Positions 1 through 10,296 of a DNA stretch of 10,296 nucleotides are shown here, piece after piece. Location of the stretch: positions 1 through 10,296 of IMG/VR virus record IMGVR_UViG_2548876863_000020; one strand, 5' to 3'. The stretch comes from a virus (lineage: Duplodnaviria > Heunggongvirae > Uroviricota > Caudoviricetes). Position numbers and translations under genes: made by a program. Position 1 is the stretch's first letter, and every line of letters starts with the position of its first letter. The notes under the pieces were generated by a model. The model was not told the origin of the DNA. It did no database searches and saw only the letters and a list, made by a program, of their open reading frames with translations.

Positions 1-201
1 TTACCCATTGGCGCGGCTTAAGAGCTTATTTTTGAATTCACAATGGTCACGATATAACCATCTTGCTCGCCCGTGGATAACTTTGGCTTTAGGCAGGTCT
101 CCGGACTTAATCCGGTCATAGATGAAGGTTTTACCGAAGCCAGTATCAGCCATGATGAATTTCAAATCAACCAGTGAATCAGGCTGTAGTTCGTGTTGCA
201 T
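1..201 (-). CDS. Excisionase-like / AlpA-family small DNA-binding protein (66 aa)
   Basis: Complete ORF, ATG at 201..199 with GGAGA 8 nt upstream, stop at window base 1. Motif IMADTGFGKTFIYDRIKSGDLPKAKVIHGRARW matches the winged-helix AlpA/Xis pattern (TG..K.TIY..I..G.FP..K.G.R..W). Sits at the distal end of the leftward operon where lambdoid phages carry xis next to int. Confidence 0.6.
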   Translation of the reverse strand: MQHELQPDSLVDLKFIMADTGFGKTFIYDRIKSGDLPKAKVIHGRARWLYRDHCEFKNKLLSRANG

Positions 202-242
202 GAGTGCTATCTCCGAATAGGGAATCGAACCTGCAAATCAGG

Positions 243-266
243 CAATAAAAAACCGCATTGATGCGG
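243..266 (-). terminator. Putative intrinsic terminator (minus strand)
   Basis: Minus-strand RNA CCGCA-UCAA-UGCGG followed by UUUUUUAUUG; 5-bp GC-rich stem plus U6 tract, between the 114-aa gene and xis. Confidence 0.4.
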
Positions 267-323
267 CGATGGTAGGTCTGGATATCTTGATAAATGAAAA
301 TGCCTCATCGAGTGTGAGGCGGG

Positions 324-668
324 TTAGTCCTTGCGTAGCTCGCTGATTCTTCTGTAAGTCTCTGGTGCTTTGTTCCCGTACGTCTTCATTTCAGACTTCA
401 ACAGAGCAACGAGTGAATCCCATTCGTTGAGGATTCCTTTGAATGCCGGAACGCGCTTTGCAACCTTGTCGAATGAATCTCTGATTTCTGGAATCTGCTC
501 AACAAGTGCAACGCATCGTCGGAAATCTGCTGCGTCATGTGGAGCGCCGAAGTGATGACCATAGATATTCTTTTTCAGTCCACATGCGATTGAGGCAATA
601 GTTGCGCTACTGATGCCGACATCGCCAGTCGATTGCCATTTCAAAACCTTCATAGCCAAATCTGACAT
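324..668 (-). CDS. Hypothetical protein (114 aa)
   Basis: ORF-track frame 324..695; start refined to ATG 668..666 (MSDLAMKVLKW...) because GGAG lies 8 nt upstream and the upstream extension would run through a terminator hairpin. No family recognised. Confidence 0.6.
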   Translation of the reverse strand: MSDLAMKVLKWQSTGDVGISSATIASIACGLKKNIYGHHFGAPHDAADFRRCVALVEQIPEIRDSFDKVAKRVPAFKGILNEWDSLVALLKSEMKTYGNKAPETYRRISELRKD

Positions 669-675
669 TTCTTGT

Positions 676-702
676 CTCCAATAAAAAACCGCCATCAGGC
701 GG
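676..702 (-). terminator. Putative intrinsic terminator (minus strand)
   Basis: Minus-strand RNA CCGCC-UGAU-GGCGG followed by UUUUUUAUUGG. The stop codon TGA of the 55-aa ORF lies in the loop. Confidence 0.5.
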
Positions 703-862
703 CTTGGTGTTCTTTCAGTTCTTCAATTCGAATATTGGTTACGTCTGCATGTGCTATCTGCGCCCATATCATCCAGTGGTTATAACAGTCGTTGATGTTC
801 TCTGCTTCGATAACCCTGTTGAATGGTTCTCCATTCCATTCACCTGTGACTCGGAAGTGCAT
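695..862 (-). CDS. Small hypothetical protein (55 aa), below the ORF-track size cutoff
   Basis: ATG 862..860 with GGAG 7 nt upstream; translates MHFRVTGEWNGEPFNRVIEAENINDCYNHWMIWAQIAHADVTNIRIEELKEHQAA; stop 697..695 inside the terminator hairpin. Confidence 0.4.
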   Translation of the reverse strand: MHFRVTGEWNGEPFNRVIEAENINDCYNHWMIWAQIAHADVTNIRIEELKEHQAA

Positions 863-870
863 TTATCATC

Positions 871-900
871 TCCATAAAACAAAACTCGCCGTAGCGAGTT
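871..900 (-). terminator. Putative intrinsic terminator (minus strand)
   Basis: Minus-strand RNA AACUCGC-UACG-GCGAGUU (7-bp stem) followed by UUGUUUUAUGG, about 43 nt downstream of the 63-aa ORF. Confidence 0.5.
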
Positions 901-942
901 CAGATAAAAGAAATCCATCAATTGGTTAGGGTTTTTGTAATT

Positions 943-1134
943 CTACGAATTATGTTGTTTTTTAGCTTCAGCTTTCCATTCATCAAAGGCAGTGTCTTTG
1001 TTCATGGTGCTGATATTGATCTTACGGTCAATATCATATACACGCCACTCACCGTTAGGCCTCTCTTCGCATCTAACTAAGTATGAATTGCCATTAATAT
1101 CTATGCGTCTGTCTATTTGCATGAACATTTTCAA
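943..1134 (-). CDS. Small hypothetical protein (about 61-63 aa)
   Basis: ORF-track frame. Start ambiguous: TTG 1134 has AGAGGA 8 nt upstream; in-frame ATGs at 1128 and 1122. No family recognised. Confidence 0.5.
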   Translation of the reverse strand: MKMFMQIDRRIDINGNSYLVRCEERPNGEWRVYDIDRKINISTMNKDTAFDEWKAEAKKQHNS

Positions 1135-1245
1135 TTTTCGAATCCTCTTTAATATGCATTTTTTGCTATTTCAGTAGTTTACTATTGATGAGGCGTTATT
1201 ATACACACTTCATTAATGCAAGCATCTTTATGCTATGCTACTAAT

Positions 1246-1527
1246 TTAGCAATTGATATTCACCTTTATCGCGTATACCTTTACCGGCTTATCACCGAAG
1301 TGGGGGTGTGTGATTGTTTTCACTTCATATCCTCCATACGGAACATCAATTCTGCGACTGGAGTCGTCGCGCTTCGGATATCCCTTTGTGATAATCAGGC
1401 GGTCATACTCCCGGAACATAATTCGCTTATTCCAATAGTCATTACACAGGCGATACTCTTCCGTTTTCTCTCCTCGAATCATGGCATCGAAGTATTCACC
1501 TTTGACGGCAAGTTGTAGGTTAGCCAC
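1246..1527 (-). CDS. ASCH/DUF3850-like (PUA-fold) protein, tentative (93 aa)
   Basis: GTG start 1527..1525 with AGGAGG 6 nt upstream; overlaps the upstream gene stop by 8 nt. N-terminal pattern L.L.VKGEYFDAMIRGEKTEEYR resembles ASCH/DUF3850 as recalled; not verified by search. Confidence 0.4.
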   Translation of the reverse strand: MANLQLAVKGEYFDAMIRGEKTEEYRLCNDYWNKRIMFREYDRLIITKGYPKRDDSSRRIDVPYGGYEVKTITHPHFGDKPVKVYAIKVNINC

Positions 1528-1822
1528 GGTTAACCTCCTGCGGAGTAGCCTTTACAAGCACTGGTGCAAATCCATCTTCATTAAGGTTATGAATATAGAC
1601 TTCTGTTCTCCTGCGCTCTTCAACGTTTAATATTGTTTCTGGATCATAAACCCATACTTTCATTCGACTATTCCATGAAGAAATCGCTTCAGATCTAGTT
1701 CGTTTTTCTGGTCCTTGGGCACCACATTTGCATGACACATAGCGCATTTTCCCTCTGATACTGAATGAGTATCCGATGTTAAGCACAGTGGAACCACAGA
1801 ATGGGCAGCGATATAGATTCAT
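1520..1822 (-). CDS. Zinc-ribbon protein, Lar-like restriction-alleviation family candidate (100 aa)
   Basis: ATG 1822..1820 with AGGTGG upstream and ATGA overlap with the upstream gene. N-terminal CPFCG...CKCG four-cysteine ribbon is the motif I associate with the Lar family; the C-terminal 50 aa is an unrecognised extension. Confidence 0.45.
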   Translation of the reverse strand: MNLYRCPFCGSTVLNIGYSFSIRGKMRYVSCKCGAQGPEKRTRSEAISSWNSRMKVWVYDPETILNVEERRRTEVYIHNLNEDGFAPVLVKATPQEVNRG

Positions 1823-2520
1823 AAATCATCCACCTTAGGCGCAGCTGAGACAGCAACATTCCAGAACTCAGAAAACATATTGTATGCACCAGATAGATTG
1901 GAAGTGGCATACCCTCCAAGCTCACTTCTAATCTGAACGGCTCTCATCATTTCCGGTGTTAACTCCTTCGGCACCATAACCCAACCATCCGGAGTTACCG
2001 GAGAGTTGCCATCCAGCGCGTTCAACTTGTAAGCCTGGCTTACAGGTTCGGCTTCCAGTTCTGCTATGCGCTTCTCTGATGCTTCAAGTAACGCCTGCTT
2101 ATCGCGTAGCGCTTCTTCCAGTTCAGCAACATGGCACTCACTATCAATAAGGTTGTTCTCTGCGGCTTCCAGCTCAACACGCAGCTTCCCTACCGTTAGC
2201 GCAATATCCTCGTTCTCCTGATCACGGTTTTTGATGTATTGCTGGTTTCTTTCCCGTTCATCCAGCAGTGCCAGCACGGTAGCCGGATTGGCTGCAGCGA
2301 TGAATTCAGCATTGGCCTGCTGTTCCATTTGGAAATCTTCATCGAAACCGCTTTCAGGATGCGCTCCTTCAATTCTGCAAATAGGAATATATCCAGCAAC
2401 TTCACGATGAATTAGCGCATCATCACCATCAAATCGGCTTTCTCCATATTCGAGCGACCACTCACCACACGTTGCTTTTTCTGCCGCTTCACGCAGTGCC
2501 TGATAGTTAATTTTGGTCAT
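1819..2520 (-). CDS. Ead/Ea22-like family protein (233 aa), tentative
   Basis: ATG 2520..2518 with GGGTGA upstream. N-terminal INYQALREAAEKAT and internal LLDERERNQQYIKNRDQENEDIALTVGKLRVELE coiled coil resemble lambda Ea22-like proteins as recalled. Confidence 0.5.
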   Translation of the reverse strand: MTKINYQALREAAEKATCGEWSLEYGESRFDGDDALIHREVAGYIPICRIEGAHPESGFDEDFQMEQQANAEFIAAANPATVLALLDERERNQQYIKNRDQENEDIALTVGKLRVELEAAENNLIDSECHVAELEEALRDKQALLEASEKRIAELEAEPVSQAYKLNALDGNSPVTPDGWVMVPKELTPEMMRAVQIRSELGGYATSNLSGAYNMFSEFWNVAVSAAPKVDDL

Positions 2521-2521
2521 A

Positions 2522-2821
2522 TCACATCACCCTGAAGCCGTTGCATTTACGTAAGAAATCGCAGATATAGCCCTTCATTTTTTCATGCCAATCTCGATCA
2601 TTCCCATTGCACCAACCATCAGGTGGAGTCCAGTTTTCTATCAGAGCAGCCATTTTCTTTGCTTTCGCCGGAGTAGCTGTTGCGGTATCGCAGTAATGAC
2701 GAGTGTCAACCAACGCATCCATACCATCGATATCAAGTACGCAAAACCATGTGTGATTCGGCATTTCAACAGATGGTATTTGTTGCCCACGTCGACGTTT
2801 ATCAATAAGACATACAGTCAC
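2522..2821 (-). CDS. Hypothetical Cys/His-rich protein (99 aa)
   Basis: ORF-track frame 2522..2854; start refined to GTG 2821..2819 because AAAGGAGG lies 6 nt upstream and it forms a GTGA overlap with the stop of the 210-aa gene. Confidence 0.55.
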   Translation of the reverse strand: MTVCLIDKRRRGQQIPSVEMPNHTWFCVLDIDGMDALVDTRHYCDTATATPAKAKKMAALIENWTPPDGWCNGNDRDWHEKMKGYICDFLRKCNGFRVM

Positions 2822-3450
2822 TGGTTGCCTCCTTTGCGAAGCTGTTCCGCCCATTCTTCAAGGGATTTCTCCGCATATTCACCAGACAGGCCATCAATCG
2901 GACGCGGTTCATTAGCCAACTCTTCTTTTGCTGACAAAATCATGCGTGTAACGTCGAAAACTTCACGCAAAGACTTATTGATAAATCCGTGATTGAACGC
3001 AGCAGCAAGACGGCTGGCGGCATAGTTAATCCCCTCGTTGCGTGCTTCCGCACGTACTTCAGCAAGGAAAGCGTCGGTGGCTGGGGTATTTTCCATTAGT
3101 TTTTTTGACGTTGACCAAAGCGCGGAAAGCCACTCTTTATCAAACCATTTATCCTTATGGTGAAACATTTCATCAACTGTCTGGTGGCAGCGGGATACCT
3201 CAAAAAGGCACCGCGCATTCTCCGCCGCCAGCGCTGAAAACTTCTCGTGTGCCAACTTAACAGCCGAATCAGCCTGCTTAATTGACTCAATCGCTCTCTG
3301 TTGGTCTTCGGACAGAGCCGAAATCTTGGCCTCCGCTTCAGCAAATTTACGCACCAGATATTCAGCGTTTGTTTCGTTAACCTTTAAATCTCGTGGAATG
3401 CATTTACCTTTCAGAAAACCATCCATCTCAATTAGTGTCATTTGTTTCAT
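2818..3450 (-). CDS. Hypothetical protein (about 210 aa), predicted helical/coiled-coil
   Basis: ORF-track frame 2818..3468 (GTG); ATG 3450..3448 preferred, with GGAG about 10 nt upstream. No family recognised. Confidence 0.6.
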
Positions 3451-3607
3451 TTTTTTCCACTCCGCCACATCGCATTCAGATATTTGTTGTCATTAACAGA
3501 ACCGAAACTCTTTCTCTTAAGCAATTCCTCTCTCGATGGCATTGGTTTTACGCGTTGGCGAATAATCATTTCTGCCGGAAGAATGCCGGGATTGTATGCA
3601 AGTCCTC

Positions 3608-3889
3608 TCATGATTTACTCTCCATGAACTGGTCAACAGCCATGCTAAGTGATACACCTAACGTCTCGATATGCTGCTGAATATCCTGTAGCGTCTGCGC
3701 CTGAGATAACAGGATTTCACGGTTGCATAACTCTTTAACCAGATGCTCAAACTTGCTGTAATAACCGATACGACTGAGCGTTTCTTTCCCTGCATTCTCG
3801 CCTTCTTTGATAATTCCTCTTTCGCTAAGAATCAGGTCGTGTTTGGTTCCGGTAATAACGTATTTTCCGAGGTCGATGTTTAGCTTCAT
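3608..3889 (-). CDS. Hypothetical protein (93 aa)
   Basis: ORF-track frame, ATG 3889..3887, same strand and tight spacing with neighbours; weak RBS. No family recognised. Confidence 0.55.
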
Positions 3890-3905
3890 TGTTAATTATT
3901 CCATG

Positions 3906-4220
3906 TTAATTTATTCGTATGCCTGCTCTTTCTTCATCGAGTTTTTTTAGCTTGTATCGCATAGCCCTTACTGAATAAATTGAGCGGCAGGTTGCAATTG
4001 CTATTTCTTCTGCGGAGAACTTACCGAAAAGTGATACTTCGGCTCTTGTCCAGCGTCTTCCACGAAGTCGGCTAACAATGTCAGCTCCAATCCTTGTTGC
4101 TTTCGCCATTACTGCTTTTTCAGTCCTTTCCAGTTTTTCAGCGATAACTTCAACTGGCATTGTTGCCGCTACTTCGCACAAGAAATCGACTTCCCATTTC
4201 TCCCATGGAGTCTTTTTCAT
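3906..4220 (-). CDS. Hypothetical protein (104 aa) with an internal tandem repeat, possible DNA-binding
   Basis: Two roughly 40-aa halves share a W..EV..F...S/P.EEIA...R pattern (PWEKWEVDFLCEV...VEVIAEKLERTEKAV versus RRWTRAEVSLFGKFSAEEIAIATCRSIYSV). Confidence 0.55.
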   Translation of the reverse strand: MKKTPWEKWEVDFLCEVAATMPVEVIAEKLERTEKAVMAKATRIGADIVSRLRGRRWTRAEVSLFGKFSAEEIAIATCRSIYSVRAMRYKLKKLDEERAGIRIN

Positions 4221-4231
4221 AGTCGATACCG

Positions 4232-4720
4232 TTATTTGATAAGAAGTGAAGGTTTCCCAACTTTGAGTTGAGCGCCGGGGATATTTATTCCTGCTTTTAG
4301 TTGGTGTTTGATTGCCAGTTTGTCGGCTTTAATTGTCGTTTCAAACTCAACGTATTCAGGAGGAAGGGCGCTTGAGTCGATGATTTCTACAGTTTCTGAC
4401 GGTTTGCGGATTGTTACTTGGTGAATACCTGCTCGAATCTTTTTCTTGCCAACCATTTCAAGCGATGACGCTATATACGCCATAATGCTGTCAATCTTAT
4501 TTTGAATTACTGCGGCTCGTTCATTCAGTGACTTTGCCTCGTCCTTGAGGCGTTCAGCATAACCAGATTCATTTTTAATAATGGCGAGAAGTTGCTCTAT
4601 TTTATCGGTAAATTCTCCTTCCATTCCTTCTATTGTGTCAGCAATCATCTCTGGCTCTAAATCTGAATCCATCAATTTTGCGTATTCATTGGCTATTTCA
4701 TATAGTTTGCTCACTGGCAA
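4232..4720 (-). CDS. Coiled-coil recombination-associated protein, possibly Sipho_Gp157-like (162 aa)
   Basis: ATG 4720..4718 with GGAGG 6 nt upstream; overlaps the recT 3' end by 23 nt. Size, predicted coiled coil and position next to recT fit Gp157-family proteins; assignment is from memory only. Confidence 0.4.
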   Translation of the reverse strand: MPVSKLYEIANEYAKLMDSDLEPEMIADTIEGMEGEFTDKIEQLLAIIKNESGYAERLKDEAKSLNERAAVIQNKIDSIMAYIASSLEMVGKKKIRAGIHQVTIRKPSETVEIIDSSALPPEYVEFETTIKADKLAIKHQLKAGINIPGAQLKVGKPSLLIK

Positions 4721-5600
4721 CCTCCAGTTTCGCTTTGCATTCTATGTAAATGGCTTGTACGTTCTGCTGCAATTTCATTCCAGATGTCAGGCGATATGCT
4801 TCTGCAAAATATCGCTTCAAATCATCCATGTTTTCTGCCTGAGCCATTTCATCACAAAGAAGTTGTGCTTTTTCCATTATTTCCTGCTGGCGTTTCCGTT
4901 CATCTTCGCGGATATCTTCCTCTGATTTGTGCGGCATAACTGGTTCCTGATGCATACCTTCATCTTCGTTAAGCAGGTGAATGGCATTATCCAGTCGCTG
5001 GGCTTTAGGCCAGTATTTGCTGGCGCGTTTAACTATGGTTTTACGCGCCATCTCTTCCCAGAATGTCTTCCACGGTCCATTCTTTGCCTTGCTCGTTGCT
5101 TCCACAGCTTTAATTTCTGCCAGACTCATTTCTTCAGTCAGGTAGTCACCATCTGCTGTTTTAACCGTGCAATAACCTCCAACAATAGAGCCTCGCTCAC
5201 CAAATGCGTTGTATTTGTGGGTTGGTGCTGAATCAAGGCCATTTGATTCATAGGTGTCGTTTGAGTACACCAGTTTGCATTGCCCCCACTTAATTGATCC
5301 TGTCGATTGCGCAAGATGAAGTAATCCCATGTAACTGATATCAAGGCACACCATGCCGTCGCGAGGAACCAGATAAGCAAGTTTGCTGGCCGGGTTTAAG
5401 GTGATGCCGATCGCCGCAACATTGATGATGGCGTTCTGTGCGCTGGTTGGATTTGCCAGTGCTGTTTTAGCCAGGTAATCGTTTTTCTGGAAATACTGAA
5501 TTGCAAACTGGCTTTCCTTAGCCCATGTCACCGTCTGTTCAGTCAATGCTCCGCAGAATAACTGCTCTTGCTGTTTAACGAATTCAACGATATTGCTCAT
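4698..5600 (-). CDS. recT: RecT-family single-strand annealing recombinase (300 aa)
   Basis: ATG 5600..5598 with GGAGA 6 nt upstream. Conserved segment NGPWKTFWEEMARKTIVKRASKYWP matches the RecT signature (compare Rac RecT NGPWVTHWEEMAKKTAIRRLFKYLP, recalled). Confidence 0.85.
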   Translation of the reverse strand: MSNIVEFVKQQEQLFCGALTEQTVTWAKESQFAIQYFQKNDYLAKTALANPTSAQNAIINVAAIGITLNPASKLAYLVPRDGMVCLDISYMGLLHLAQSTGSIKWGQCKLVYSNDTYESNGLDSAPTHKYNAFGERGSIVGGYCTVKTADGDYLTEEMSLAEIKAVEATSKAKNGPWKTFWEEMARKTIVKRASKYWPKAQRLDNAIHLLNEDEGMHQEPVMPHKSEEDIREDERKRQQEIMEKAQLLCDEMAQAENMDDLKRYFAEAYRLTSGMKLQQNVQAIYIECKAKLEVASEQTI

Positions 5601-5908
5601 GCAGCTTCTCCATAAATATGTCTGCGTTTGAATATTGCGAAGGCATATTCAGCCTTAACTCTTTCGGTTATTGCATCCCAGAACCATTCAGCGGCTTTTT
5701 CCTGATAGTTACAGTCATCATCTTCCAGCCAGTCGATAGCGTCCTTAGTGTGTTCATCTGGTTTATATGAGCGAAGCATTTCGCTTATTGGGTCGCAACG
5801 TTTGCAGAGGCGATCAACTTCACTGTTGATTCGCTCGTAATCTTCATCAGTAAAACTTGCGATTATTTGCGATATTTCACGCTTATCATTCAGAGTCAGA
5901 ATCATCAT
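5597..5908 (-). CDS. Hypothetical acidic protein (103 aa), immediately upstream of and coupled to recT
   Basis: ATG 5908..5906 with AGGAG upstream; ATGA overlap with the recT start. Occupies the slot that Gam/Abc-type RecBCD inhibitors take in lambda/P22; function inferred from position only. Confidence 0.6.
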   Translation of the reverse strand: MMILTLNDKREISQIIASFTDEDYERINSEVDRLCKRCDPISEMLRSYKPDEHTKDAIDWLEDDDCNYQEKAAEWFWDAITERVKAEYAFAIFKRRHIYGEAA

Positions 5909-5989
5909 CTTTCTCCTGTTCTTTGTGCTGATTGAGCATTTTGTTCATCTGACGAATGAATTCTTCGTCTGACCAGTTATCCGTAAAAC

Positions 5990-6160
5990 TCATGGACGGC
6001 CTTGTTGTTTCAAAATATCCCAAAGCTTTTCGAGCAAACTTTTCATTCTTGGTTGTTTAAAGTCTGCTCCGGTTAAAATATTTTTTCGTGAATGCTGTAC
6101 CGATAAAATCGGGTTGAAAGGGCGAACCGATGCCGCCCCTGCAATAGCGAACTGTTGCAT
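5990..6160 (-). CDS. cIII: cIII-like protein (56 aa)
   Basis: Internal ATG 6160..6158 of the 5990..6265 frame, with AAGGAG 7 nt upstream. MQQFAIAG... start and ...SLLEKLWDILKQQGRP end resemble lambda CIII (MQYAIAG...SLLERI...RLIDILNQPGVP, recalled). The 35 codons upstream in the track ORF lack an RBS and overlap a terminator. Confidence 0.5.
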   Translation of the reverse strand: MQQFAIAGAASVRPFNPILSVQHSRKNILTGADFKQPRMKSLLEKLWDILKQQGRP

Positions 6161-6220
6161 AGGATGCTCCTTCTGTTTGATTGCATAACGAAAACGCCTC
6201 GAGTGAAGCGTTATTGGTAT

Positions 6221-6250
6221 GCATATAAAAAGGCCCTCACACTGGAGGGC
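6221..6250 (-). terminator. Putative intrinsic terminator (minus strand) upstream of cIII
   Basis: Minus-strand RNA GCCCUC-CAGUGU-GAGGGC followed by CUUUUUAUAU. Confidence 0.5.
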
Positions 6251-6384
6251 AAAGAAGATTTCCAATAATCAGAACAAGTCGGCTCCTGTTTAGTTACGAG
6301 CGACATTGCTCCGTGTATTCACTCGTTGGAATGAATACACAGTGCAGTGTTTATTCTGTTGTTTATGCCAAAAATAAAGGCCGA

Positions 6385-7008
6385 CTATGCGGCTTCGGAA
6401 GGAAGTCCAATCATCTTATTCAAATCTTCTACCCGTAAAGCAGGAAGTGCTGTACTTGCTTTATCTGCTTCTTTTGGTAGCAATTCTTTGCTTTCAGGCC
6501 AAACTTCAATAAGTCGCTTAACTGTTGTGACTGAGTTCAAAGCAGCCCATACATTTGATTCGATATCCTTTTTCAAGGCTTCAAGGTTTTGTTGCAATGC
6601 GCAGATTTCATCAAACCTTTTTGTTATTTCGTGTTCTGCGTCAAACATGCATTTATCTTTAGTCGGAGTAGGGAGCAATATATCTTCTCCGTTGCCGTCT
6701 TTCCCATATGAATGCCATCCAACCCTTCTGCCAGATACAGTCAGATAAATCGAAGTAGAACGAACATCGCATGAGTAAAATGAACATCCCAGCTTTTCAA
6801 GTTCTTCACTTATAGCTACTAACTTGGATGATAACTGATCCACTTCCTCAGTTTTATTTTTACCGCCAAACGCAATAACTCTGGCGTCAAGTGCAAGCTG
6901 GTTCTTTAACTTTGTTACTTCTTCAAGTTCAGTGAAAACCCCAGACTTAATTAAAGCGTTACGAGCGATTTTCTCTTTCATTCTCGTAGTTAAGCGGATT
7001 GATGACAT
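6385..7008 (-). CDS. Hypothetical protein (207 aa)
   Basis: ORF-track frame 6385..7023 (TTG); ATG 7008..7006 preferred, with GAGAGGT upstream. Lies between ral-like and cIII-like. No family recognised. Confidence 0.65.
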   Translation of the reverse strand: MSSIRLTTRMKEKIARNALIKSGVFTELEEVTKLKNQLALDARVIAFGGKNKTEEVDQLSSKLVAISEELEKLGCSFYSCDVRSTSIYLTVSGRRVGWHSYGKDGNGEDILLPTPTKDKCMFDAEHEITKRFDEICALQQNLEALKKDIESNVWAALNSVTTVKRLIEVWPESKELLPKEADKASTALPALRVEDLNKMIGLPSEAA

Positions 7009-7021
7009 ATTAATACCTCTC

Positions 7022-7054
7022 AAATAAGAAAATAAAGGCCACCATCAGGCAGCC
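7022..7054 (-). terminator. Putative intrinsic terminator (minus strand) after ral-like gene
   Basis: Minus-strand RNA GGCUGCC-UGAU-GGUGGCC (7 bp including two G-U pairs) followed by UUUAUUUUCUUAUUU; the ral-like stop TGA is in the loop. Confidence 0.45.
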
Positions 7055-7245
7055 TTGTTGTTCTGTTTACCAAGTTCTCTGGCAATCATTGCCGTAGTTC
7101 GTATTGCCCATTTATCGACATATTTCCCATCCTCCATTACAGGAAGCATTTCTTCAGGCTTAACCATGCATTCCGATTGCAGCTTGCATCCATTGCATCG
7201 CTTGAATTGTCCACACCATTGATTTTTATCAATAGTCGTAGTCAT
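7045..7245 (-). CDS. ral: Ral-like restriction-alleviation protein (66 aa), cysteine-rich
   Basis: ATG 7245..7243. Sequence MTTTIDKNQWCGQFKRCNGCKLQSEC... matches my recollection of lambda Ral closely, and it lies downstream of N in the pL operon as ral does in lambda. Not verified by search. Confidence 0.5.
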   Translation of the reverse strand: MTTTIDKNQWCGQFKRCNGCKLQSECMVKPEEMLPVMEDGKYVDKWAIRTTAMIARELGKQNNKAA

Positions 7246-7323
7246 ACGGATAGTCCTGGTATTGTTCCATCACATCCTGCGGATGCTCTTCGAACTCTTC
7301 AAATTCTTCTTCCATATCTCACC

Positions 7324-7623
7324 TCAAATAAGTGGTTTGCTGCCTAATTTCATTTTCTGGCAACCAACACAAGTCACACCCATTTCACTGCGTGGCTTGC
7401 GGTAGTAAATACGGTTCTGTTTACGCTCGACTTCTTCTTTCTTCTTGCAGCAAAGGCTTCCTAGCGATGCTGCTTTGTCTGCTCTGACGCAACCAGAGAG
7501 CTTTAGCGCAATTTTTCGCGCCAGTCGCTGCTCTTGCATCGCCTGTTCACGTTGAGCCTGTCTGCGTGCTCTGCGGCGATTTCTGGCGTTATCGTCAGCC
7601 AGATATGTAATGACTACTGTCAT
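7324..7623 (-). CDS. N: Antitermination protein N (99 aa)
   Basis: ATG 7623..7621 with GGAGG 5 nt upstream (track ORF extends further with a non-ATG start). Arginine-rich motif NARNRRRARRQAQREQ near the N-terminus; C-terminus ERKQNRIYYRKPRSEMGVTCVGCQKMKLGSKPLI parallels lambda N (ERKNQRTWYSKPGERGITCSGRQKIKGKSIPLI, recalled). Confidence 0.85.
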   Translation of the reverse strand: MTVVITYLADDNARNRRRARRQAQREQAMQEQRLARKIALKLSGCVRADKAASLGSLCCKKKEEVERKQNRIYYRKPRSEMGVTCVGCQKMKLGSKPLI

Positions 7624-7678
7624 GTTGACCTCCGATGAAACAACTTTGGAATTGATAGTGATTGCAAAGTGGTTTCTG

Positions 7679-7707
7679 GCCCCTCGAACTGAGGGGCAGA
7701 AAGAGCA
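7679..7707 (-). promoter_or_regulatory. GC-rich hairpin with boxA-like flank in the N leader (function uncertain)
   Basis: Minus-strand RNA UGCUCUUUCU then GCCCCUC-AGUUC-GAGGGGC (7-bp perfect stem), about 55 nt upstream of the N start; no U tract after it, so not a classical terminator. Confidence 0.35.
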
Positions 7708-7936
7708 TCTCGCCACCTAATAGGTCGATGCTCGGATCGAGAGATTTAATTAACCTCGGTTTTGAAGTTATGCATTCACATAAATCCTCCTACCTCTTGT
7801 GCAGCTTTCTTGAATATGGTGGCGGCTGCATAACGCCTATGGAATTGACTTTGGCGGTGACGCGCCGGGTGCTTATCTTCCGGTTGCCGTCGTGCAGCTG
7901 CACTTCACGTCACCCCAAAGCCAACTACTCTTTGGT

Positions 7937-7978
7937 TCCCGCATTTCGGCGGGACAATCCCATCAATGTTAAAGAGCA
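7937..7978 (-). promoter_or_regulatory. nutL (boxA + boxB)
   Basis: Minus-strand RNA UGCUCUUUAAC (boxA-like; consensus CGCUCUUUA) followed after 14 nt by hairpin UCCCGC-CGAAAU-GCGGGA. The same boxA plus identical boxB occurs in the same transcript orientation downstream of cro. Confidence 0.7.
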
Positions 7979-8023
7979 TGCCAATCTGTTCCGTTTGGCT
8001 ACCAGCGTCCTGCTGATGGCTAA

Positions 8024-8052
8024 AGAATACTGTAGGTATTTTATTGTGTAAA
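8024..8052 (-). promoter_or_regulatory. pL candidate (-35 TTTACA, 17-nt spacer, -10 TATTCT on minus strand)
   Basis: Read on the minus strand: TTTACA (plus 8047-8052), spacer of 17, TATTCT (plus 8024-8029). Same -10 hexamer as the pR candidate; overlaps OL1, about 40 nt upstream of nutL. Confidence 0.45.
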
Positions 8053-8110
8053 TACCCAAGGTATTTATTTTTGGTGAAATAATGATAAGCAAATGAATAC
8101 AAAGGATATT
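8026..8110. promoter_or_regulatory. OL operator cluster (three 15-bp palindromic sites)
   Basis: AATAC-TGTAG-GTATT (8026-8040), AATAC-CCAAG-GTATT (8051-8065), AATAC-AAAGG-ATATT (8096-8110). Same AATAC-N5-GTATT motif as in the cI-cro intergenic region. Confidence 0.6.
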
Positions 8111-8197
8111 TATTTTTTTCGGTGTCTGCTTGTTCAGTGCTTTTTATGCGGGATATGTGAAGTGGATCCCGATAGCTATTGCTGCCGGGATTATGAG

Positions 8198-8566
8198 TTA
8201 GTCAGCGAAGGTTAAGACGAGAATTACCTTAATGATGTCTGCTACAACAGACACGGCCATAGATAAACCAAAGACGATCCAAGCCATAGAGATGTCTTCA
8301 CTACCATCGTATAGAGTTCCGTAATCACTGGTGTAAGGCGTAAATGTCGCGCCTTGATACAACAGGTATAAGCTTGAACCATAGAGGATAAATGCAGATA
8401 TCCCTTGTATTGCTATGATCACTAGAATCATGAAACGAGCTGATCTATGCGCCCAAGCCTGGCTTATTTTTTCTGATAGAGATTTCGCAATAAAAGCATG
8501 CGCTAAGCCGTAAATTGTCGAGATTGCCAACATCCCAAAAAAGCTTGCTATAGCGGTTCCAACCAT
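8198..8566 (-). CDS. Small integral membrane protein (about 122 aa, three predicted TM helices) co-transcribed downstream of cI
   Basis: ORF-track frame 8198..8587 (TTG overlapping the cI stop); ATG 8566..8564 with AAGGGG upstream is the more likely start. Three hydrophobic stretches of roughly 25 residues each. No terminator between it and cI. Confidence 0.65.
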   Translation of the reverse strand: MVGTAIASFFGMLAISTIYGLAHAFIAKSLSEKISQAWAHRSARFMILVIIAIQGISAFILYGSSLYLLYQGATFTPYTSDYGTLYDGSEDISMAWIVFGLSMAVSVVADIIKVILVLTFAD

Positions 8567-8583
8567 AAGCGCCCCTTGCGTGA

Positions 8584-9300
8584 TCAAACCAGCCTTAGTT
8601 TTGTCTCAATTGCAACGCCTATAATCTTGCAGTTTCCATTGATTGGCACGAGAGGCCATGCAGGGTTAAGTCCCTTGAGGTATTTATTTCCGCCGTCGAT
8701 TATCAGCTTCTTGAATGTTGCTTCGTTAGAGTCAGAAAGTTTTGCTATGACCAAGCTGCCGTTGATCGCCTCCCTTCCGGTATCGAAAAGAACGAATGTT
8801 CCCTCTGGAATGCTTAACCCAACCGGTGCCGTCATTGAATCACCTTCCACTTTAAGCCAGAACGCATTACCTTGAATATGCGCGTCAGACTCAAGCCAAA
8901 CATCTATGTCTTTAATGGTGTATGGTTCGCATGCTTCACACCACGAGCCAGCCTGGATACTGCTTAACACCGGATACCTCTTTCCTGCTCTGTATTCCCC
9001 TGCATACCTTACGTTGGCATCGCTCTTAAGGCTTTCTGCCTGTTCTGCAACCTTGGCAGCAATTGACTGGCTAAAATCAGCAATTGAGACTTGCAACAGT
9101 CGTGCAAAACCAGATGCAACCTCAACGTTTAGCGCGTTTCTGCCATTAAGATAATGCCCTACCGCTCCTTGGGTGATACCCAGTTCATCAGCGATTGAGT
9201 ATTGGGTTATTCCCAATTCTTTCTTTTTTGACTCATACAAAGCCTTAAGCCGCTTAGCGTCTTCGAGCTGTTCTGTCGTCAGTGATTTTTTATTTTCCAT
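8584..9300 (-). CDS. cI: CI-type prophage repressor (238 aa), HTH plus S24 autopeptidase domain
   Basis: Strong resemblance to lambda CI as recalled (LTTEQLEDAKRLKALYESKKKELG...). Ala-Gly cleavage site in IQAGSW, catalytic Ser in EGDSMTAP, Lys in TFKKLI. Divergent from cro with operators between them. Confidence 0.95.
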   Translation of the reverse strand: MENKKSLTTEQLEDAKRLKALYESKKKELGITQYSIADELGITQGAVGHYLNGRNALNVEVASGFARLLQVSIADFSQSIAAKVAEQAESLKSDANVRYAGEYRAGKRYPVLSSIQAGSWCEACEPYTIKDIDVWLESDAHIQGNAFWLKVEGDSMTAPVGLSIPEGTFVLFDTGREAINGSLVIAKLSDSNEATFKKLIIDGGNKYLKGLNPAWPLVPINGNCKIIGVAIETKLRLV

Positions 9301-9306
9301 AGCTTA

Positions 9307-9335
9307 ATTCTAATAGCTAAGGTACTTAAACTAAA
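9307..9335 (-). promoter_or_regulatory. pRM candidate, leaderless or near-leaderless cI transcript
   Basis: On the minus strand, TAGAAT (plus 9307-9312) ends 6 nt before the cI ATG and there is no Shine-Dalgarno, as for lambda pRM; the -35 is weak (TTTAGT). Confidence 0.35.
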
Positions 9336-9375
9336 AATACCCTAAGTATTGATTGCTTTGAATACCTGTAGTATT
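9312..9375. promoter_or_regulatory. OR operator cluster (OR3, OR2, OR1)
   Basis: AATAG-CTAAG-GTACT (9312-9326), AATAC-CCTAA-GTATT (9336-9350), AATAC-CTGTA-GTATT (9361-9375); centre-to-centre spacing 24-25 bp. Confidence 0.65.
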
Positions 9376-9377
9376 CT
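9349..9377 (+). promoter_or_regulatory. pR candidate (-35 TTGATT, 17-nt spacer, -10 TATTCT)
   Basis: -35 at 9349-9354 overlaps OR2; -10 at 9372-9377 overlaps OR1; about 30 nt upstream of the cro start. Confidence 0.5.
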
Positions 9378-9406
9378 TTGTTCATGGTTAATAACGGAGA
9401 GTGCAT

Positions 9407-9601
9407 ATGATTCGAATGACACTTGCCGATTACGCCAAAATCCATGGACAGGCTAAAGCAGCCAGTGACTTTGGTGTAATCCAGTGCGCTATCAGCAAGG
9501 CCATTCTGGCAGGCCGTAACATTATGGTTACGGTAAAGCCTGATGGCAGTGTGATTGGAGAGGAAGTTCGTCCTTTCCCAAGCAACAAGAAAAACAAATA
9601 G
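9407..9601 (+). CDS. cro: Cro repressor (64 aa)
   Basis: ATG 9407 with GGAGA 6 nt upstream (track ORF begins at GTG 9401). Resembles lambda Cro as recalled (ITLKDYA..FGQTK.A.DLGV.QSAINKAI.AGR...DGSV..EEV.PFPSNKK). Confidence 0.9.
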
Positions 9602-9607
9602 TAACAC

Positions 9608-9652
9608 CGCTCTTTAACAGTCATGGTCCTCATTCCCGCCGAAATGCGGGAA
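9608..9652 (+). promoter_or_regulatory. nutR (boxA + boxB)
   Basis: CGCTCTTTA at 9608-9616 (boxA consensus), then hairpin TTCCCGC-CGAAAT-GCGGGAA at 9633-9652, identical to the nutL boxB, immediately after the cro stop. Confidence 0.75.
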
Positions 9653-9658
9653 TACAAC

Positions 9659-9690
9659 GCGCACAAGTTGATGCGCATAACTTCTTATTA
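9659..9690 (+). terminator. tR1 candidate
   Basis: Hairpin GCGCA-caagttga-TGCGC followed by a moderately U-rich AUAACUUCUUAUU, between nutR and cII. Weak as an intrinsic terminator; could be Rho-dependent as in lambda. Confidence 0.3.
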
Positions 9691-9709
9691 GTTAAGGAAA
9701 TACTTACAT

Positions 9710-9988
9710 ATGCAACTTACAAGTACTCGCAAGAAAGCGAATGCAATTACAAGCAACATCCTGAATCGAATTGCTGTACGTGGTCAGCGAAAGGTTGCCG
9801 ACGCGTTAGGGATTAATGAATCGCAAATTTCGCGATGGAAAGACAGCTTCATCCCAAAAATGGGAATGCTTCTGGCTGTTCTTGAATGGGGTGTTGAAGA
9901 CGAGGAGTTGGCGGAACTGGCTAAGAAAGTAGCCAGAATGCTGACAAAAGAAAAAGCCCCGAAGAACGGCGAATTCTTCGAGGCCTGA
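9710..9988 (+). CDS. cII: CII transcriptional activator (92 aa)
   Basis: ATG 9710 with AAGGAAA upstream. Resembles lambda CII as recalled (KSQISRWK....[14 protein letters not shown]...A.LA..VA..LT). Confidence 0.9.
9944..9980 (-). terminator. oop-like antisense terminator inside the cII 3' end
   Basis: Minus-strand RNA CGAAGAA-UUCGCCG-UUCUUCG (7-bp stem) followed by GGGCUUUUUCUUUUG; position matches the lambda oop RNA terminator. Confidence 0.35.
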
Positions 9989-10022
9989 TGTAGAAAGACT
10001 GGATCAATCCACAGGAGTAATT

Positions 10023-10169
10023 ATGACAAAACAACTCAGTCCTTACCAGGACAAAATTCACAAACACATACTACGTGATCGCTTCCTGTCCAGCTTCAAG
10101 CAGCCTGGTCGATTCCGGGCTGAGTTGGAAAAAGTGAAGCTGATGCAGAAGGAGAAAGGTCATGAGTAA
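10023..10169 (+). CDS. Small hypothetical protein (48 aa), below the ORF-track cutoff
   Basis: ATG 10023 with AGGAG 6 nt upstream; translates [48 protein letters not shown]; stop 10167-10169. Confidence 0.4.
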
Positions 10170-10296
10170 TCTTGCAACCGTAACACATTTAAGGCCTTCA
10201 CAACGGCCTGTGGAGCGTCGTGTGGCAGAAGTTGAAGATGGTTATACTGAACCGCCCCGGGAATCCTGGAGACTAAACTCCCTGAGAAAGAGGTAA
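10162..10296 (+). CDS. Small ORF (44 aa) with an N-terminus reminiscent of replication protein O; ends at the window edge
   Basis: ATG 10162 with AGGAG upstream, overlapping the previous stop by 8 nt. [10 protein letters not shown]...[11 protein letters not shown] parallels lambda O MTNTAKILNF...RNVADLDDGYA (recalled); stop TAA at 10294-10296. Every forward frame has a stop in the last 60 nt. Confidence 0.4.

Follow-up and report, generated by a model that had tools for sequence, protein, structure and literature searches.

The pL operon of phage lambda is the paradigm of N/nut processive antitermination, in which polymerase is carried over a series of terminators (tL1, tL2a-d, and tL3). Experimental backing for tL2a reportedly goes back to Luk and Szybalski in 1983. 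Such backing is also cited in the preprint 10.1101/2024.10.31.621285, where this site, at which transcription of the early left operon terminates, corresponds to the 3′ end of LPR1/PreS, an sRNA of ~88 nt that is processed to ~68 nt, binds Hfq, and activates dnaN. Two other lambda sites, t4 and t5, flank orf55 in the exo-xis region and are, in lambda too, computational predictions only, made with ARNold (Bloch et al., 2014; PMC4195576, Table 4).

The window analyzed here, a stretch of 10,296 nt from a tailed phage (IMG/VR record IMGVR_UViG_2548876863_000020, positions 1 to 10,296), represents a pL operon of the lambdoid type. It carries N, nutL and nutR sites that match one another, and a pI region with the same sequence as in HK620. 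It also contains five minus-strand sites consisting of a hairpin followed by a U-tract, which are most probably (at roughly 85%) ordinary Rho-independent terminators of this early leftward operon. By sequence, none of the five is new: the same kind of signal is known, predicted, or annotated in lambda, HK620, and HK140, and the five-site finding is thus correct but ordinary.

The N system and promoters of the operon

The gene order follows lambda, with pL, nutL, and N preceding a long array of genes in one direction that includes several intrinsic terminators (Table 1). The array ends at xis, and int would lie beyond the window edge. Judged by sequence, the N system appears complete, comprising the N gene, nutL and nutR with identical boxB, and pL and pI regions identical to those of HK620. 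The specificity of N and boxB is predicted to be of the HK620 type and not of the lambda type. The N protein has an arginine-rich N-terminal stretch (NARNRRRARRQAQREQA) and matches Pfam N_peptide with an E-value of 8.4e-4, which is below the curated cutoff, while its DNA is 97% identical to the annotated N of phage 611R6 and 96% identical to HK620 N over the 207 nt that align (7432-7638). A promoter scan gave a match at 8052..8024, within pL; sigma-70-like matches were depleted overall (6 found versus 18.8 ± 3.6 expected).

The promoter pI is putative and takes its name from annotation, as 208-246 matches, at 100% identity, what the GenBank record of HK620 labels ‘promoter, phage integration’, together with the accompanying cII protein_bind feature. 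The putative site has the spacing TTGC-N5-TTGC, versus TTGC-N6-TTGC for the pRE site in the window. The first-pass annotation had allowed for internal promoters as an alternative to N, and the conserved, putatively cII-dependent pI agrees with this. At sites 2, 3, and 5, in contrast, the next start codon follows the stem at a distance of only 17-26 nt, leaving no room for a promoter.

Table 1. Features of the leftward operon, with hairpin folds (kcal/mol), z-scores, the number of 200 shuffles folding at least as well, and the terminator discriminant d.
Feature	Position	Strand	Match or description	Hairpin and following tract	Fold	z	Shuffles	d
pI-like promoter	208..246	minus	TTGCCTGATTTGC motif; upstream of xis-like gene (1-201)
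Site 1	243..267	minus	consensus scan: stem 267..252, tail TTTTTATTGC	GCCGCA-UCAA-UGCGGU, then UUUUUAUUG	-8.3	-1.8	12/200	8.9
Extra weaker hairpin	293..320 (stem 302-320)	minus	consensus scan: tail AUUUUCAUUU		-9.1	-3.9		-9.9
114-aa gene	324..668	minus	function unknown; phrog_1229, PHROGs E 2.8e-51
Site 2	676..705	minus	consensus scan: stem 705..686, tail TTTATTGGAG	AAGCCGCC-UGAU-GGCGGUUU, then UUUAUUGG	-13.4	-3.4	0/200	31.0
orf55 homologue (lambdap35)	695..862	minus	phrog_676, E 1.7e-39
Site 3	871..901	minus	consensus scan: stem 901..882, tail TGTTTTATGG	GAACUCGC-UACG-GCGAGUUU, then UGUUUUAUGG	-11.9	-3.8	0/200	15.7
tL2B counterpart	6183..6212 (stem 6193-6212)	minus	upstream of cIII	AACGCUUC-ACUC-GAGGCGUU, then UUCGUUAUG	-9.9
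Site 4	6221..6250	minus	consensus scan: stem 6250..6233, tail CTTTTTATAT	GCCCUC-CAGUGU-GAGGGC, then CUUUUUAUAU	-10.7	-2.1	6/200	12.7
PreS (LPR1) sRNA homologue, predicted	6227..6314	minus	approximate ends, 88 nt back from U-run
Weak hairpin	6372..6395	minus	Nmad5 stop codon UAG in loop	then CCUUUAUUUUUGG	-6.5	-0.3
Nmad5-domain gene	6385..7008	minus	PF18757, E 1.7e-69; phrog_1965
Site 5	7022..7056	minus	consensus scan: stem 7056..7035, tail TATTTTCTTA	AAGGCUGCC-UGAU-GGUGGCCUU, then UAUUUUCUUAUUU	-13.9	-3.9	0/200	19.0
N antiterminator gene	7324..7623	minus	99 aa; phrog_271, E 8.8e-37
nutL	7935..7978	minus	boxA UGCUCUUUAACA, boxB hairpin UCCCGCCGAAAUGCGGGAA; corresponds to HK620 ‘nutL’ feature
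pL promoter	8017..8052	minus	100% identical to HK620 ‘pL’ feature
nutR	9608..9652	plus	boxA core GCTCTTTAACA and boxB TCCCGCCGAAATGCGGGAA identical to those of nutL

Terminator-like sites of the window

Site anatomy, statistics, homology, and junction positions were observed directly. The ranges of the first-pass annotation (243-266, 676-702, 871-900, 6221-6250, and 7022-7054) coincide with the scanned stems plus U-tracts, and all five sites were recovered by consensus scan, folding, and discriminant, between genes and on the transcribed strand of the array. Its wording of ‘at least five’ is fair, given weaker extra minus-strand hairpins at 302-320, 6193-6212, and 6372-6395. The first of these, 3 nt past the stop codon that closes the 114-aa gene, is below the discriminant threshold, and the last folds no better than its shuffles. 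Each of the five sites folds as a single hairpin (-8.3 to -13.9 kcal/mol) with a stem of 5-9 bp, which is of the ordinary kind; stems of 12-15 bp are found in terminators resisting one processive antitermination system, a different one (PMC10325885). The energy of site 1 is only marginally better than that of its shuffles.

The terminator prediction proposed with the first-pass annotation was run with our own discriminant, which combines hairpin energy and T-tract in the style of d'Aubenton-Carafa. Over both strands of the whole window, only six sites score above zero, all of them minus-strand and none plus-strand, namely the five claimed sites and an oop-like site near cII (9956-9984). In 60 dinucleotide-preserving shuffles, we found 0.29 above-zero sites per strand, with a maximum of three. 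Lambda 27000-38500 served as positive control, in which the same discriminant also recovers the predicted t2-t5, and its sites match what we take to be the positions of tI, tL3, tL2a, tL2b, and tImm. Between int and N, lambda has eight minus-strand sites above zero, a density similar to that of the window.

Some lambda sites lack a counterpart. None was predicted for tL1 between N and ral, and from 6193 to 901, a span of 5.3 kb that in lambda includes tL2c, tL2d, and tL3, the discriminant gives no site above zero. The tL3 annotated in HK620 has no exact copy in the window, and the stretch taken as tL3-equivalent (3480-3540) shows no hairpin with T-run by reading and no scan site. No covariation support was found for the stems, which are nearly invariant among relatives that are 96-100% identical; the variants are single-sided or wobble changes only.

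Counterparts in lambda, HK620, and HK140

Site 4 is, by sequence, lambda tL2a and the 3′ module of PreS. The hairpin is identical to that of lambda (33933-33950), with 118/118 nt matching over the hairpin and 100 nt upstream, and the PreS stretch 6227-6314 is 100% identical to lambda; no Rfam family was found for PreS. The U-tract differs at its start (CUUUUUAUAU in the window versus GAUUUUUUAUC in lambda). Lambda tL2a is located between ral and ea10, and site 4 is likewise downstream of ral, upstream of cIII, and on the pL strand. The HK620 ‘tL2A’ feature is annotated at the same place with one loop base different. As ea10 is absent from the window, tL2a has tL2b as its neighbor, an arrangement shared with HK620 and HK140. 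The tL2b hairpin differs from the HK620 ‘tL2B’ feature in two loop bases and aligns to the ea10-cIII spacer of lambda, whose counterpart (33495-33510) scores d = 0.8. Among the lambda counterparts, only tL2a is experimentally backed; t4, t5, site 1, and the ral-end hairpin are predictions.

Sites 2 and 3 correspond by their sequence to the predicted lambda t5 and t4, respectively. Lambda 29102-29339 and window 679-916 are 95.8% identical, with the same hairpins, loops, and U-tracts, and in both phages the loop of t5 holds the orf55 stop codon (UGA, 695-697 in the window). The t4 stem is fully Watson-Crick in the window (GCGAG) but contains a U-G wobble in lambda (GCGGG). Lambda has a t3 hairpin just ahead of t4 that the window lacks, and in the window t5 is followed by the 114-aa gene instead of pI and xis. 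The site 2 hairpin is annotated as ‘rho-independent terminator’ in HK140 RefSeq. In the IMG/VR loci, orf55 is always bracketed by the t4 and t5 hairpins. Site 3, located 41 nt past the previous stop codon and 19 nt ahead of the orf55 start, is present in all 72 loci with an orf55 start anchor (8/80 loci are without the anchor), and its arms vary by wobble substitutions only, apart from two single-locus variants.

Site 5 holds the ral stop codon UGA (7045-7047) in its loop. The lambda version of this sequence, at the end of ral, folds at only -4.3 kcal/mol, making the window's version the stronger one, and both strong and weak variants occur in IMG/VR loci. Site 1 follows the stop codon of the 114-aa gene at a distance of 56 nt and has the pI region immediately beside it. 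Pairing is kept among its variants in relatives (C-G to U-G, G-U to G-C), with one variant degenerate.

Predicted masking by translation and a possible post-transcriptional role

The stop codons in the loops of sites 2 and 5 had not been noticed in the first-pass annotation. At tR2, shifting a stop codon that lay 28 bp upstream to 5 bp upstream lowers the efficiency from ~90% to under 10% (PMC4824070). Given this precedent and the position of their stop codons, translation of the upstream gene should mask sites 2 and 5 for the most part. Sites 1, 3, and 4 lie 41-134 nt past a stop codon, so termination would be unhindered there.

Such masking would also suit hairpins that act mainly after transcription, as 3′-end stabilizers or as 3′ modules that bind Hfq, in RNAs that, like PreS, are processed out of the read-through transcript of pL, rather than as gates of N-dependence. 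Site 4 corresponds to the Hfq-dependent PreS 3′ end in lambda, with the PreS body fully conserved here, and 243-323 (two hairpins and then a U-run) has the shape of a 3′UTR-derived sRNA. However, the sRNA 3′ end at tL2a is itself made by termination, and both roles are therefore compatible rather than exclusive. Moreover, in lambda RIL-seq the Hfq-enriched phage sRNAs are only LPR1, LPR2, and 6S, with none ending at t4 or t5 (10.1101/2024.10.31.621285), and three of the five sites are placed where termination would meet no ribosome. We consider a mainly post-transcriptional role rather unlikely.

Proposed cassette exchange at T-runs

Homology with relatives breaks in or beside T-runs, which was likewise missed in the first pass: it ends at 251-257 in 56/80 xis-carrying loci, at 679-686 in 70/80 orf55 loci, upstream of site 3 at 906-916 in 74/80 orf55 loci, and at 7029-7032 in 79/80 ral loci. 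Since the breaks fall there, we propose that each hairpin and T-run travels with its adjacent gene as one module, and the same hairpin sequences are conserved beside the same genes in many genomic contexts. In the window, the Nmad5 gene sits as an inserted cassette after the ral-end hairpin and before the PreS region; in lambda and HK140, the PreS region follows ral immediately. The 114-aa cassette is bracketed by related hairpins; HK620 lacks it and has one hairpin linking pI to the orf55-like 3′ end. Morons are units of promoter, gene, and terminator added to phage genomes (PMC3594210). Like them, the 114-aa and Nmad5 cassettes vary in their presence, and each has a terminator-like hairpin at its end, but they have no promoter of their own and, with the short gap from hairpin to start codon, would not be independent transcription units. 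The earlier partition of the operon into cassettes thus holds in the evolutionary sense and not in the transcriptional one.

A further reading is that the hairpins and T-runs persist mainly as recombination joints for lambdoid cassette exchange, with termination as a side effect or a relic of a former context. All four sites tested have their homology ends in or beside T-runs, and both window-specific cassettes are flanked by duplications, the 114-aa cassette by GCGGTTTTTTATTG (243-267 and 679-703) and the Nmad5 cassette by GGCCTTTATTTT (6372-6388 and 7029-7045), which duplicates the T-tract at the ral end. The T-run of tL2a is likewise the insertion point of ea10 in lambda, and the hairpins of site 1, t5, the ral end, and the Nmad5 end resemble one another. 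On the other hand, the junctions are confined to the short non-coding gap left after a stop codon and before the next ribosome-binding site, so the T-run position is largely forced and is not specific evidence, and 12-14-mers recurring by chance are no rarity in 10 kb. The full terminator anatomy is also kept intact and strand-specific (6 to 0), which fits selection for termination. We regard recombination as the main reason for their persistence as unlikely, slightly more so than a mainly post-transcriptional role.

Functionless chance hairpins beside T-rich ribosome-binding regions are highly implausible, even though the loose consensus scan also gives plus-strand matches inside genes and shuffles match the energies of sites 1 and 4 (Table 1), because the above-zero sites far exceed the shuffle rate and are all intergenic on the transcribed strand, their sequences are conserved beside the same genes across contexts, and one of them is the described termination site tL2a (10.1101/2024.10.31.621285).

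Proposed transcription along the operon

For the preferred reading as Rho-independent terminators, we infer termination itself, read-through by N, and ribosome masking from lambda biology. Polymerase would start at pL and transcribe nutL; once N is made, it would become termination-resistant and read through every hairpin to the xis-like gene. Without N, the genes N, orf28, and ral would be transcribed freely. The expectation that everything left of N depends on antitermination was therefore too strong, as the first predicted terminator comes only after orf28 and ral; the position of ral upstream of every predicted terminator had been overlooked. By analogy with lambda, N-dependence would apply to the genes beyond the terminators.

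The first barrier to unmodified polymerase would be the ral-end hairpin, masked while ral is translated, followed by tL2a and tL2b (6193-6250) in an untranslated spacer and, much further on, by t4 (882-901), t5 (686-705), and site 1 (252-267). This picture covers Rho-independent sites and is incomplete, because Rho-dependent terminators cannot be predicted. As the terminators would act in series, little unmodified transcription should reach xis. Directly after site 1, the cII-type pI may provide N-independent transcription for lysogenization. The tL2a hairpin would also provide PreS with its 3′ end, and gene cassettes have probably been swapped in and out of the operon at the T-runs.

Gene organization of the window

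By megablast, the window matched 623 phage records, foremost HK140, vB_EcoP-611R6, HK620 and Stx phages, with 94-98% identity in mosaic blocks. A gene map based on annotated relatives and profile searches identifies it as a lambdoid immunity region and early-left arm, the latter running leftward on the minus strand (see table). An ORF at 6057-6224 that might at first sight be taken for cIII was rejected, as the true cIII is the phrog_550 match; both tL2a and tL2b thus fall within the non-coding spacer.

Features of the window, with the five hairpin and U-tract sites given as stem positions
Feature	Position	Strand	Support or remark
cI	8584-9300
hkaS-like gene	8198-8587		after cI
pL	8017-8052	minus	100% identical to HK620 feature
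nutL	7935-7978	minus
N	7324-7623		phrog_271 'anti-termination protein N-like', E 8.8e-37
orf28-like ORF			after N
ral	7045-7245		Pfam Ral, E 6e-48
Site 5	7035-7056	minus	-13.9 kcal/mol; ral-end hairpin
Nmad5-domain gene (nucleotide modification associated domain 5)	6385-7008	minus	PF18757, E 1.7e-69
Non-coding spacer, 224 nt			between Nmad5 gene and cIII
Site 4	6233-6250	minus	-10.7 kcal/mol; counterpart of lambda tL2a
cIII	5990-6160		phrog_550, E 1e-22
RecT, Mu-Gam-like, Ea22-like, Lar-like and other genes			unbroken run from cIII to 63-aa ORF
63-aa ORF	943-1134		phrog_16329
Site 3	882-901	minus	-11.9 kcal/mol; counterpart of predicted lambda t4
lambda orf55 homologue	695-862
Site 2	686-705	minus	-13.4 kcal/mol; counterpart of predicted lambda t5
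114-aa gene	324-668		phrog_1229
Site 1	252-267	minus	-8.3 kcal/mol
pI	208-246	minus	100% conserved with HK620 pI sequence
HK620-type xis-like gene (hkaC)	1-201
nutR	9608-9652	plus
cII	9710-9988	plus

The N protein is recognized by its phrog_271 match and by an arginine-rich stretch (NARNRRRARRQAQREQA) in its translation, while Pfam N_peptide stayed below the cutoff (20.2 vs 27.9 bits). nutL and nutR have a common boxA (GCTCTTTAACA) and an identical boxB (TCCCGCCGAAATGCGGGAA) and match the nut features of HK620. Given these paired nut sites, the N/nut system looks intact. A 205-nt segment between nutL and the N start (7639-7843, minus) is found in HK140 but not in HK620. Within it, a boxA-like UGCUCUUU precedes a strong hairpin, CUGCCCCUC-AGUUC-GAGGGGCCAG (7678-7707, -18.9 kcal/mol, no U-tract). 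The segment might hold an additional element resembling nut or a target of RNase III in the leader of N.

Sigma-70-like promoter matches are depleted over the whole window (6 vs 18.8 +/- 3.6 in shuffles). Within the 110-nt non-coding gap that precedes the 63-aa ORF, a perfect TATAAT occurs at 1198-1203 (minus), some 65 nt upstream of the ORF; lacking an acceptable -35 element, it is at best a weak candidate for an internal promoter. The putative cII site at pI reads TTGC-N5-TTGC (TTGCCTGATTTGC), and the pRE site (9709-9745, minus) has the canonical N6 spacing (TTGCTTGTAATTGC).

Predicted intrinsic terminators on the minus strand

The first-pass annotation had reported five minus-strand sites with a hairpin and a U-tract (sites 1 to 5), and all of them are present. 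In a consensus scan, each has a U-rich tail behind its stem. RNA folding gives a single hairpin per site, G+C-rich and short-looped: the stems measure 5-9 bp and include 4-5 G-C pairs, and the loops have 4-6 nt. The loose scan returned 21 matches against 9.7 expected and so includes chance-level matches; the window was therefore rescored with a discriminant in the style of d'Aubenton-Carafa, which combines hairpin energy per length with T-tract quality. All five sites have T-tract scores of 4.2-4.8 and a positive discriminant score (d > 0). Over the whole window, d > 0 was reached at only six sites, namely sites 1 to 5 and an oop-like hairpin at 9956-9984. All six belong to the minus strand and the plus strand has none, compared to 0.29 per strand with a maximum of 3 in 60 dinucleotide-preserving shuffles. 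All positive-scoring sites lie between genes on the transcribed strand, above chance. The presence of the five sites is confirmed, far beyond chance.

No scoring hairpin outside the listed sites was reported by the discriminant scan of the window. Weaker minus-strand hairpins occur at 302-320, at 6193-6212 (the tL2B counterpart) and at 6372-6395, the last being no better than those in shuffles. No exact copy of the HK620-annotated tL1, tL2C, tL2D and tL3 was found in the window, and reading of 3480-3540, taken as the tL3 counterpart, revealed no hairpin with a T-run. Site 2 as a bidirectional terminator was discarded, given its poor plus-strand tail (CTTGGTGTTC).

Applied to lambda, the discriminant picks sites at the positions of tI, tL3, tL2a, tL2b and tImm and also recovers the predicted t2-t5. 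A literature search found no lambda term-seq data; an RNA 3' end at the U-tract is reported only for lambda tL2a/PreS (10.1101/2024.10.31.621285).

Two further minus-strand regions deserve mention. At 9945-9986, antisense to the cII 3' end, a strong terminator with a stem of 14 bp (-20 kcal/mol, d = 29.5) has the position and shape expected where an oop-like antisense RNA ends; a promoter that would drive such an RNA was not identified. After the 114-aa gene, region 243-323 combines the hairpins at 302-320 and 252-267 with an A/U-rich linker and a terminal U-run, an architecture typical of Hfq-binding sRNAs that derive from a 3'UTR, although this reading is speculative.

Counterparts in related phages

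The sites were placed by blastn against lambda, HK620, HK140 and 611R6 and from the aligned sequences. For four of the five, a direct counterpart exists in lambda, HK620 or HK140; three of these are annotated, predicted or experimentally defined, the fourth (the ral-end hairpin) being an unannotated, weaker lambda homologue. The orf55 homologue has sites 2 and 3 on either side, within a block 95.8% identical to lambda 29102-29339, where the same hairpins were predicted by ARNold as t5 and t4 (Bloch et al. 2014, PMC4195576, Table 4); site 2 is also annotated as 'rho-independent terminator' in the HK140 RefSeq record. Site 5 overlaps the ral stop codon and is much stronger than the lambda version of the sequence (-13.9 vs -4.3 kcal/mol), and both the weak and the strong variant circulate in related phages. 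Site 1 precedes the sequence annotated in HK620 as the cII-dependent integration promoter pI.

The minus-strand hairpins at 686-705, 7035-7056, 6372-6395 and 252-267 are alike (GCCGC/GCUGC, N4-6, GCGG/GGC, T-run), and sites 2 and 5 have GCCUGAUGG in common, with the stop codon in the loop. This likeness may mean that they share an ancestor or were copied repeatedly as cassettes were inserted. For each of orf55, ral and the xis-like gene, 80 IMG/VR loci were examined for covariation, together with 120 more loci retrieved by a degenerate pattern around site 2. No compensatory pairs were found in these loci, as their stems are nearly invariant, with only wobble or single-sided changes, and the relatives are 96-100% identical at the protein level.

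Site 4 and the PreS locus

The site 4 hairpin is identical to lambda 33933-33950, and together with the 100 nt upstream it matches lambda at 118 of 118 nt. The assignment of site 4 to lambda tL2a is reportedly backed by Luk and Szybalski (1983). Besides this work, the assignment rests on a statement in the preprint describing PreS (LPR1), an Hfq-dependent lambda sRNA, and on the HK620 GenBank record, which carries the tL2A label on the site 4 sequence and tL2B on the next hairpin.

PreS is about 88 nt long, is processed to about 68 nt, binds Hfq and activates dnaN, as shown in lambda only; it is conserved in lambdoid phages by a criterion of at least 92% identity and at most three gaps (10.1101/2024.10.31.621285). 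From this conservation and the 118-nt match, an intact PreS locus is placed in the window at roughly 6227-6314; site 4 would be at once the terminator and the 3' module of a PreS homologue. The order of ral, the Nmad5 gene, the PreS region and cIII places it downstream of ral in the pL operon, the Nmad5 insertion between ral and the PreS region being a difference from lambda. No Rfam family matched the window, searched over its full length at E <= 1; PreS has no family there, and the lambda cIII thermosensor does not match the divergent cIII of the window.

Cassettes and mosaic junctions

The first-pass annotation had the terminators partition the operon into cassettes, which is borne out in an evolutionary sense, since homology breaks in or beside the T-runs. 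Among the 80 orf55 loci, homology to the window stops at 679-686 in 70 and at 906-916 in 74; among the 80 ral loci it stops at 7029-7032 in 79, and among the 80 xis loci at 251-257 in 56. Behind the t5 hairpin and T-run, at least four unrelated sequences occur (lambda pI/xis, HK620 pI/xis, the 114-aa gene and another gene), and roughly a dozen different sequences lie upstream of t4 among the IMG/VR orf55 loci. Not one of the 80 ral loci from IMG/VR continued into the Nmad5 gene. Duplicated hairpin/T-run sequence lies on either side of the two cassettes (324-668 and 6385-7008) that are peculiar to the window, and the tL2a T-run of lambda is similarly the insertion point of ea10. These varied flanking contexts, together with the homology breaks, indicate that hairpin, T-run and gene travel as one module, with the mosaic joints in or beside the T-runs. 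The position of the joints is partly forced, as only few non-coding bases are available.

The 114-aa and Nmad5 cassettes resemble morons in their variable presence, being absent from HK620, lambda and most IMG/VR loci, and in having a hairpin at the end of each. Between the preceding stem and the next start codon there are only 17-26 nt, a gap with no promoter-like match and no room for a promoter, and such matches are depleted in the window; the moron explanation is therefore ruled out.

A more far-reaching reading, which we consider unlikely as a whole, is that the hairpin/T-run elements form a family of dual-use 'linkers' of roughly the form GCCGC-N4-6-GCGG-Tn, often with a stop codon in the loop. 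They would be preferred points at which lambdoid phages insert or swap early-left cassettes, perhaps with the phage itself supplying RecT-type annealing over 12-25 nt of common sequence. Several elements besides tL2a/PreS would be sources of 3'-derived regulatory RNAs, and the stop codon in the loop would make termination dependent on translation of the upstream gene.

Termination, translation and dependence on N

Multiple intrinsic terminators overridden by N are a known feature of the lambdoid pL operon. Under the standard lambda model, which we infer to apply here, polymerase from pL would undergo modification at nutL through N together with Nus factors of the host, after which it would read through all terminators; unmodified polymerase would be stopped at the terminators in series. 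Behind site 1, pI would offer an N-independent route to the integration genes. The stems of sites 1 to 5 are ordinary, unlike the long-stem terminators that resist another processive antitermination system (PMC10325885), a comparison that is only suggestive as it concerns a different system.

Sites 1, 3 and 4 are located downstream of the preceding stop codon, at distances of 56, 41 and 134 nt, respectively, and in sites 2 and 5, as in the weak 6372-6395 hairpin, the stop codon is within the loop. By analogy with tR2, where shifting the stop from a position 28 bp upstream to one 5 bp upstream lowered efficiency from ~90% to <10% (PMC4824070), this stop-in-loop arrangement would largely silence sites 2 and 5 during translation of orf55 and ral. 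The effective N-sensitive barriers would then be tL2a plus tL2b, t4 and site 1. No terminator is predicted between N and ral, hence ral should not need N. The earlier interpretation, that expression of everything left of N depends strongly on N, is the textbook one, partly overstated. Three points escaped it: site 4 corresponds to the PreS 3' module, translation would mask sites 2 and 5, and the elements behave as modules with mosaic junctions.

Significance for lambdoid prophages

As a discovery, these results carry little weight, the PreS locus, the masking and the module behaviour all being of known kinds. The T-run junctions and the stop codons in loops, neither new in principle, are a possible input to the study of how terminators shape phage mosaicism. 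For prophage annotation, the analysis is of use in pointing to an intact PreS locus, a complete N/nut system and an HK620-type pI, and the expression of the Nmad5-domain and phrog_1229 accessory cassettes is predicted to depend on read-through.
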